64,000 bases of DNA, taken from the sequence record PQ666539; one strand, given 5' to 3'. Positions 35,744 to 37,723 of this stretch are shown piece after piece. The notes under the pieces are model-generated. The model was not told the DNA's origin and made no database searches. It saw only the letters and a program-made list of their open reading frames with translations. How positions within the stretch are numbered: position 1 is the stretch's first letter; every line of letters begins with the position of its first letter. This DNA is from Shigella phage sb1. The position numbers and the translations under genes were made by a program.

Positions 35744-37723
35744 ATGGCTTTATTATCTCCGGGCATTGAGCTCAAAGAAACTACGGTTCAAAGCACCGTT
35801 GTTAATAACTCTACTGGTACAGCAGCTTTGGCCGGTAAATTCCAGTGGGGTCCTGCTTTTCAAATTAAACAGGTTACAAATGAAGTAGATTTAGTTAATA
35901 CTTTTGGTCAACCTACAGCTGAAACTGCTGACTATTTTATGTCTGCAATGAATTTCTTACAATATGGAAATGATTTGCGAGTCGTACGCGCTGTCGATAG
36001 AGATACCGCTAAAAACTCATCTCCGATTGCTGGTAATATTGAATACACTATTTCTACTCCAGGTAGTAACTACGCGGTTGGAGATAAAATCACGGTTAAT
36101 TATGTTTCAGAAGATGTTGAAACATAATGTAAAGTTACCGAAGTAGATGCTGATGGAAAAATTAAGAAAATTAATATTCCTACCGCAAAAATTATCGCTA
36201 AAGCAAAAGAAGTAGGCGAATATCCAGCATTAGGTTCTAATTGGACCGCGGAAATTTCTTCGTCTTCCTCTGGTTTAGCCGCAGTAATAACTCTTGGAAA
36301 AATTATTACTGATTCTGGTATTTTATTAGCTGAAATTGAAAATGCCGAAGCTGCTATGACAGCGGTTGAATTTCAGGCAAATCTCGAAAAATATGGAATT
36401 CCAGGAGTAGTAGCTCTTTATCCGGGTGAGTTGGGCGATAAAATTGAAATTGAAATCGTATCTAAAGCTGACTACGCAAAAGGGGCTTCTGCATTACTCC
36501 CAATTTATCCAGGTGGCGGAACACGCGCATCTACTGCCAAAGCAGTGTTTGGATATGGACCACAAACTGACTCGCAATACGCTATCATAGTTCGTCGCAA
36601 TGATGCTATTGTTCAAAGCGTTGTTCTTTCAACAAAGCGTGGCGAAAAAGATATTTACGATAGTAACATCTATATTGACGACTTTTTCGCAAAAGGTGGT
36701 TCAGAATATATTTTCGCAACTGCACAAAACTGGCCAGAAGGCTTCTCTGGAATTTTAACTCTGTCTGGTGGATTATCATCAAATGCTGAAGTAACAGCAG
36801 GAGATTTGATGGAAGCTTGGGACTTCTTTGCTGACCGTGAATCTGTTGATGTTCAGTTGTTTATTGCGGGTTCTTGTGCCGGTGAATCTTTAGAAACAGC
36901 ATCTACTGTCCAAAAACACGTCGTTTCAATTGGAGATGCTCGCCAAGATTGCTTAGTACTGTGCTCACCACCGCGTGAAACTGTTGTTGGAATTCCTGTA
37001 ACTCGCGCTGTTGATAACTTAGTCAATTGGAGAACTGCAGCAGGTTCATACACTGATAATAACTTTAATATCAGTTCAACCTATGCAGCAATCGATGGTA
37101 ACTACAAGTATCAGTATGACAAATATAATGATGTAAATCGTTGGGTTCCATTAGCAGCTGACATTGCTGGTTTATGCGCAAGAACTGATAACATTTCTCA
37201 GACTTGGATGTCTCCGGCTGGTTATAATCGTGGCCAGATTCTTAACGTTATTAAACTTGCTATTGAAACTCGCCAGGCACAGCGCGACCGTTTATATCAA
37301 GAAGCTATCAACCCAGTAACTGGTACAGGTGGTGATGGTTACGTATTGTATGGTGATAAAACAGCTACTTCTGTTCCTTCTCCATTTGATCGTATTAACG
37401 TTCGTCGTCTGTTTAATATGTTGAAAACGAATATCGGACGTAGTTCAAAATATCGTTTATTCGAATTAAACAACGCGTTTACTCGTTCATCGTTCCGCAC
37501 AGAAACAGCCCAATACTTACAGGGAATTAAAGCTCTCGGTGGAATTTATGAATATCGTGTAGTTTGCGATACAACAAATAACACTCCGTCAGTAATTGAT
37601 AGAAATGAGTTTGTTGCAACATTCTACATTCAACCGGCTAGAAGCATTAACTACATTACCTTAAACTTCGTAGCAACTGCTACTGGTGCAGATTTCGATG
37701 AGTTAACTGGTCTTGCAGGTTAA
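35744..37723 (+). CDS. 18: gp18 tail sheath, interrupted by in-frame TAA at 36125-36127
   Basis: track ORFs 35744..36127 and 36356..37723 share frame; 660 codons as T4 gp18. Confidence 0.9.

Follow-up and report, generated by a model that had tools for sequence, protein, structure and literature searches.

The tail sheath protein gp18 of bacteriophage T4 (PDB 3FOA, 3J2M and 9MKB) is the closest described counterpart of the gene considered here, gene 18 in a 64,000-nucleotide stretch of Shigella phage sb1 (sequence record PQ666539), which was analysed over its whole length and is called the window below. The two genes are alike in their colinearity over residues 1-659, in their set of Pfam domains and in their place between genes 17 and 19, save for an inserted open reading frame (ORF) in the window. 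They differ at codon 128, which is Glu (GAA) in T4 and in every other relative examined except Shigella phage sb2, and an in-frame TAA in the window. Our analysis indicates that this TAA is very probably an error in the deposited or assembled sequence and no property of the phage, which almost certainly encodes an intact sheath protein of 659 residues. The spectrum of substitutions in the window, the lack of selective filtering among them, the many broken essential genes and the occurrence of the same defect in sister records together lead to this reading.

Several known situations resemble the one found in the window. The classical amber and ochre mutants of T4 gene 18 share with it the presence of one nonsense base change, the rest of the gene being intact. 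Those mutations were single, selected and kept on suppressor hosts. In contrast, the window has 26 further stops of three kinds and a spectrum of unselected noise. The presence of many in-frame stops in structural genes is also reminiscent of stop-recoded phages, in which TAG or TGA is reassigned and read by suppressor tRNAs; however, the window differs from them by its three stop types, by the five amino acids that these replace, by having no suppressor tRNA and by the fact that its stops are missing in relatives. The excess of substitutions in the window belongs to the same C>A/G>T class as the published 8-oxoguanine (8-oxoG) artefacts (Costello et al., 2013; PMC3616734), and in both cases the changes are unselected and non-biological. 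Nevertheless, the published artefacts are of low frequency and have a context preference (PMC3616734), whereas the changes in the window are present in the consensus and show no trinucleotide preference. Finally, two records of the same study as the window, Shigella phages sb4 (PQ666542) and sb2 (PQ666540), are like it in their excess of non-synonymous C>A changes and in some shared sites, although sb4 has a T>A excess in addition and sb2 has far fewer such changes; sb3 of that study is clean.

The features of gene 18 in the window are the following:

35744-37723, plus strand: gene 18 (tail sheath), full span, from the ATG at 35744 to the terminal TAA at 37721-37723, with 659 sense positions and a stop, broken at codon 128
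36125-36127, plus strand: in-frame TAA at codon 128 of 660, G>T at 36125 changing Glu GAA to TAA
36100, plus strand: G>T private to the window, AAG to AAT (Lys119Asn), 25 nt upstream of the stop and of the same substitution class
36356-37723, plus strand: downstream ORF from Met205, the first in-frame ATG, GTG or TTG past the stop; a restart product would be without residues 128-204; Prokka divides the gene of sb2 into the same two pieces

The initial annotation, made from the letters of the window alone, had described a tail sheath gene of 660 codons with an in-frame TAA at codon 128, after which the frame stays open through MTAVEF to the end of gp18, and this description is correct in its position, length and flanking peptide. 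The translation consists of 127 sense codons, the TAA and then 532 sense codons to the terminal TAA; around the stop, the peptide reads ...VSEDVET, stop, CKVTEVDADGKIKKINIPTAK..., and MTAVEF occurs further on. As 532 stop-free codons past the TAA at about 36% GC are not due to chance, we are dealing with one gene and one interrupting substitution. The proposed identity as a T4-type gene 18 was likewise confirmed by a full-length alignment and by the domain set. T4 gp18 (PDB 9mkb, 3j2m) aligns with the window product 1-659 on 1-659 without gaps (1444 bits), the interrupting stop standing opposite Glu128, and the Pfam domains Gp18_domIII_N, Gp18_dom_I, Phage_sheath_domII, Phage_sheath_1 and Phage_sheath_1C are all present, with the stop at profile position 31 of 93 in Gp18_dom_I. 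More than 500 tail sheath genes of Tequatrovirus share 97-99% nucleotide identity with the gene, which lies in the late-gene block between genes 17 and 19, in the order 15-16-17-18-(inserted ORF)-19-20.

The initial annotation had also raised the possibility of additional hidden indels. None exists in gene 18, either against T4 gp18 or in a 1983-nt stretch aligned to four relatives (phages Killian, ESh16, OE5505 and sb2), which contains 0 gaps. The differences from Killian, ESh16 and OE5505 fall nearly all at third codon positions, and the Cys129 codon beside the stop is a natural variant that is also found in Killian and ESh16. At position 36100, T is present in the window alone; six aligned genomes (sb2 included) have G, Killian, ESh16 and OE5505 have G or A, and the residue in T4 gp18 is Lys.

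The stop in gene 18 is one of many. The window is a T4-like (Tequatrovirus) stretch that comprises regB, a tRNA cluster, late structural genes (53, 5-24, hoc, uvsW, 25-29, 48 and 54) and alt. Each annotated gene of the closest record, that of sb2 (PQ666540.1), was compared with the window, and this census yielded 27 premature in-frame stops in 24 genes over the 64 kb, together with a 1-nt deletion in gene 12, the only frameshifting indel among the genes compared. Most of these stops are GAA>TAA, GGA>TGA, TAC>TAA or TCA>TAA changes, i.e. G>T or C>A. TAA, TGA and TAG are all found in frame, the codons replaced being those of Glu, Gly, Tyr, Ser and Leu, and relatives at 96-99% identity have a sense codon at every site. 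Besides the stop in gene 18, the interruptions are:

6039-6041, minus strand: TGA for GGA (Gly66), hypothetical gene 5622-6236
6353-6355, minus strand: TAA for GAA (Glu173), hypothetical gene 6278-6871
7753-7755, minus strand: TAA for TAC (Tyr4), hypothetical gene 7501-7764
9066-9068, minus strand: TAG for TAT (Tyr34), hypothetical gene 8694-9167
12247-12249, minus strand: TAA for GAA (Glu71), tail-fibre assembly helper gene (57A)
13504-13506, minus strand: TAG for Ser83, gene 3 (tail tube terminator)
17212-17214, plus strand: TAA for GAA (Glu486), gene 5 (baseplate spike/lysozyme)
18418-18420, plus strand: TAA for GAA (Glu35), gene 6
25107-25109, plus strand: TAA for GAA (Glu218), gene 9
26189-26191, plus strand: TAA for TCA (Ser290), gene 10
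28277-28278, plus strand: 1-nt deletion relative to sb2 (one gap column) with frameshift, gene 12 (short tail fibre), split into ORFs 27783-28292 and 28340-29329
29327-29329, plus strand: TAA for TAC (Tyr516), gene 12
33858-33860, plus strand: TAA for GAA (Glu153), gene 16 (small terminase)
34975-34977, plus strand: TGA for GGA (Gly366), gene 17 (large terminase)
35461-35463, plus strand: TAA for GAA (Glu528), gene 17
42042-42044, plus strand: TAA for TCA (Ser25), gene 22 (scaffold)
42312-42314, plus strand: TAA for GAA (Glu115), gene 22
43617-43619, plus strand: TAA for TTA (Leu274), gene 23 (major capsid protein)
51075-51077, plus strand: TAA for GAA (Glu11), uvsW.1
52141-52143, minus strand: TAA for GAA (Glu8), uvsY
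53609-53611, plus strand: TAA for GAA (Glu102), gene 51
54634-54636, plus strand: TGA for GGA (Gly194), gene 27
55075-55077, plus strand: TAA for GAA (Glu341), gene 27
55897-55899, plus strand: TGA for GGA (Gly65), gene 29
57684-57686, plus strand: TAA for TAC (Tyr67), gene 48
59586-59588, minus strand: TAA for TCA (Ser93), near the end of a small gene downstream of alt
61449-61451, minus strand: TAG for GAG (Glu178), alt (ADP-ribosyltransferase)

Gene 17 (33880-35712, plus strand), directly upstream of gene 18, is cut by its two stops into ORFs of 365, 161 and 80 aa. The capsid, terminase subunit, scaffold and baseplate genes are each essential in T4 genetics, and nonsense codons present simultaneously in capsid, scaffold, terminase, sheath and baseplate genes would make plaque formation impossible.

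The substitutions that produced these stops do not resemble those of related genomes. Substitutions private to one genome were counted in 45 genes (44,360 ungapped columns) of the window, sb2, sb3, sb4, pSs-1, Ec_YwIITB1 and ECp13, with the following results:

Window: 412 private substitutions, 152 of them G>T/C>A (37%)
pSs-1: 174 private substitutions, 9 of them G>T/C>A (5%)
Ec_YwIITB1: 361 private substitutions, 18 of them G>T/C>A (5%)
ECp13: 133 private substitutions, 6 of them G>T/C>A (4.5%)
sb3: 330 private substitutions, 22 of them G>T/C>A (7%)

In the window, the G>T/C>A changes are distributed over codon positions 1, 2 and 3 as 66, 52 and 34. They comprise 11 synonymous, 122 missense and 19 nonsense changes, against 12.8, 120.5 and 18.6 expected without selection when every possible G>T/C>A change in the 45 genes is enumerated (chi-square p=0.87). 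By contrast, 95 of the 112 private T>C changes are synonymous, which indicates real evolutionary divergence; the window is thus a normal diverged genome with unselected G:C>T:A changes superimposed on it. These changes are symmetric between strands (70 C>A and 82 G>T on the plus strand) and show no context hotspot, the rate of G>T being 5-13 per 1000 in all 16 trinucleotide contexts. The GC content of the 45 genes is 35.88% in the window, compared with 36.14-36.33% in the relatives.

The unselected G:C>T:A rate amounts to about 0.95% of G:C positions. Given the 86 possible nonsense sites of gp18, 0.81 nonsense changes are expected in this gene, and the probability of at least one is 0.56. The stop in gene 18 is therefore what the background process predicts. 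Although the stop itself, as initially annotated, is present, its framing as something particular to gene 18 does not stand, in view of this expectation and of the stops spread over the other genes of the census. Nothing in the window suggests a mechanism specific to gene 18, be it a suppressed ochre mutant, a split sheath protein or recoding.

How could such noise have arisen? We propose that a Tequatrovirus consensus has been overlaid by unselected G:C>T:A transversions, one of which would have converted the conserved Glu128 codon GAA to TAA. Its physical cause may be oxidative damage of the 8-oxoG type, miscalls in two-colour chemistry, or a coverage of glucosyl-hydroxymethylcytosine DNA that was low or uneven, together with the k-mers that the assembler chose.

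Some observations speak against a sequence error. Classical 8-oxoG artefacts are events of low allele fraction (PMC3616734), and are unlikely to reach the consensus at high coverage. Since such artefacts are usually of low frequency, they would have to be joined by thin or uneven coverage, a library of low complexity or an effect of the assembler. A more direct difficulty is that sb2, a distinct GenBank record which is about 2.7% divergent in gene 18, has the same TAA at codon 128 (TAA128), and random errors are not expected to coincide, yet this one is common to both. TAA128 is not the only such site. The window and sb2 have 7 G>T/C>A doubletons in common (about 0.3 by chance), 6 of them non-synonymous and one of them TAA128 itself, and the window and sb4 have 8 (about 1 by chance), all missense. 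The shared sites do not lie in unusually long identical runs when compared with random positions, and no trinucleotide hotspot is available to account for shared errors. Cross-assembled patches were also considered as a source of the sites shared by the window, sb2 and sb4; they are unsupported, as the identical runs are no longer than random.

The distribution of the stop in other records is nevertheless narrow. Position 36125 is T only in the window and sb2, and G in Killian, ESh16, OE5505, sb3, sb4, pSs-1, Ec_YwIITB1, ECp13 and two metagenome contigs. A 61-mer around the stop matches 490 phage records, among which sb2 alone has a single mismatch, and TAA128 was found beyond the window and sb2 in none of the phage records or metagenome contigs searched. 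A search of IMG/VR with the locus pattern gave no match whatsoever. As the window shares other error-like G>T changes with both sb2 and sb4, the sharing of TAA128 looks like a batch effect and not like an independent confirmation; G>T/C>A doubletons shared by the window with ECp13 and pSs-1 number 0-1. A site-specific systematic error in one run or pipeline is the most economical reading of the shared sites.

One study of four phages from lake water in Kolkata, based on NovaSeq 6000 sequencing, SKESA assembly and Prokka annotation, yielded sb2, sb3 and sb4 (PMC11993411). The fourth phage of this study, ADG1 (PQ666539, the record of the window), has 285 proteins and 35.16% GC, sb2 and sb3 have 254-255 proteins and about 35.5% GC, and TMC4 has 291 proteins and a lower GC content than sb2 and sb3, sb4 being the 291-protein record (PMC11993411). 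A higher protein count and a lower GC content, as in ADG1, are the pattern that such noise would produce. Premature stops in the 45 genes follow the same division, with 28 in sb4, 2 in sb2 and 0 in each of sb3, pSs-1, Ec_YwIITB1 and ECp13, and among the private changes of sb4, non-synonymous C>A and T>A are over-represented. In the annotation of sb4 (PQ666542.1, 76016-126006), gp7 is given in 4 pieces and gp6, 10, 12, 13, 14, 15, 16, 27, 28 and 48 in 2 pieces each. The gp18 of sb2 has a second stop, Cys608 TGC>TGA, which is a C>A change; the equivalent codon of the window (37565-37567) is without it.

Among the alternatives to a sequence error, the one that survives best, although we consider it very improbable, is that the G:C>T:A changes are real. 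Hypermutation by oxidative damage in vivo, a mutator host (of the mutY/mutM/mutT type) or a library derived from very few damaged molecules could have led to a dead genome that was faithfully reported. A single dominant class of changes, strand-symmetric and unselected, is indeed what 8-oxoG-driven change would give (PMC3616734), and the presence of the changes at the consensus level fits this view as well. However, a genome with 27 nonsense mutations could not be propagated as a plaque-forming clone, and the sites shared with separately prepared samples point to the sequencing batch or the pipeline. In any case, hypermutation leads to the same outcome for gene 18, i.e. the stop is no functional feature.

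It is likewise very improbable that gene 18 carries a real ochre codon, inherited from a common ancestor with sb2 or acquired with a recombined patch, and that the sheath is made by readthrough or host suppression. The window and sb2, two distinct genomes, have in common both this TAA and a local haplotype over 36101-36279 (A at 36205, C at 36228, T at 36241) that is complete in none of the other five aligned genomes. Against this, the 26 other stops of the window are of all three kinds and lie in essential genes, so that no single suppressor would rescue them all, and ARAGORN detected no suppressor tRNA in the phage but only the following:

9561-10388, minus strand: single tRNA cluster of the phage, 10 tRNAs with ordinary sense anticodons (ARAGORN)

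The anticodons are tct, gtt, gta, cat, tgt, tga, tgg, tcc, taa and ttg, none of which reads a stop. The base after the stop in gene 18 is T (TAAT); termination in E. coli is most efficient at UAAU, and a sheath takes 138 copies of gp18 per tail. Moreover, other non-synonymous G>T/C>A changes are also common to the window, sb2 and sb4, which places the sharing of TAA128 in the noise class, and the survey described above returned TAA128 from no other phage record or metagenome contig. A more elaborate version, in which TAA128 would be a real ochre polymorphism in two T4-like phages of one lake, the sheath being formed by readthrough or from two fragments split in domain I and the polymorphism being hidden by the noise, seems to us even more doubtful.

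A naturally split sheath gene, giving an N-terminal piece of 127 residues and a restarted C-terminal piece with the break in a surface-exposed domain I, is extremely unlikely. In T4 gp18 structures, domain I is outermost and protruding. The stop does fall within this domain (Pfam Gp18_dom_I), and the sheath of sb2 was annotated by its depositors (Prokka) as two coding sequences. However, translation could resume in frame no earlier than at Met205, at a cost of 77 residues that comprise the remainder of domain I and the beginning of domain II. A point substitution in a gene that is otherwise colinear is all that is seen at the break, which has gained neither a spacer nor a ribosome-binding site nor a start codon; the break is not conserved in about 488 other records, and the same kind of split is seen in 23 other genes of the window.

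Recoding of stop codons, by an alternative genetic code like that of some gut phages, or a ribosome hop of the gene 60 type is hardly conceivable and already refuted, although the many in-frame stops over many genes give the window a first-sight likeness to recoded phage genomes. All three stop codons occur in frame while still terminating genes, and the codons that they replace stand for five different amino acids. Each site is a sense codon in relatives at 96-99% identity, the phage is without a suppressor tRNA, and the nonsense count matches the unselected expectation (19 against 18.6). Bypass would need a coding gap relative to homologues, which is missing, and its take-off codon, ACA, is not followed by a matching ACA for landing in the next 70 nt.

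Read as a sequence error, the stop in gene 18 matters only as a data-quality flag for the record of the window and for the sister record sb4. The window genome and at least one sister GenBank record carry about 4 unselected substitutions per kb, and on paper about one-third to one-half of the structural genes are broken. Protein sets, gene counts, GC content and comparisons of amino-acid usage derived from the record of the window are thus unreliable, and gene callers will output non-existent split versions of the sheath, capsid, terminase and baseplate proteins. A real stop would imply that a split or read-through gp18 suffices to build a contractile sheath, for which we see no support.

The ORF inserted between genes 18 and 19 (37724-38380, plus strand) encodes 218 aa and starts directly behind the terminal stop of gene 18. 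The ORF matches PHROG 5104, a family of unknown function, with E=3e-91, whereas a Pfam search gave no match. Its product is Cys-rich and contains an HNH-like 'DH...N...N' motif, both judged by eye. The ORF is missing in Killian, ESh16 and OE5505, where the spacer between genes 18 and 19 is 116 nt, and an ORF is annotated at this place also in pSs-1, sb2, sb3, sb4, Ec_YwIITB1 and ECp13. It is probably a mobile insertion of the endonuclease type.

A different kind of defect is seen in Ec_YwIITB1 (PQ356294.1), whose annotation gives the major capsid protein and hoc in pieces and wac in a shortened form. This genome has no premature stops but shows 50 columns with a deviant gap state in a codon-wise count, and its record seems to carry indel errors instead.

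In the tRNA cluster, the window and sb2 differ by about 20 substitutions, 8 of which are T in the window and G in sb2; it seems that the same noise hits RNA genes too. The tRNA-Tyr of the window is called 3 nt shorter than that of sb2. At the end of the window, two tandem alt paralogues (59925-61982 and 61986-64000, minus strand) share about 68% identity across roughly the first 690 nt, as is also the case in sb2, and the first of them has the TAG at 61449-61451. In the region of gene 67 (40637-40876), a small prohead core gene, there is a 15-nt in-frame deletion at position 40801 relative to sb2, which is probably natural length variation, the annotated lengths being 234-258 nt among relatives.

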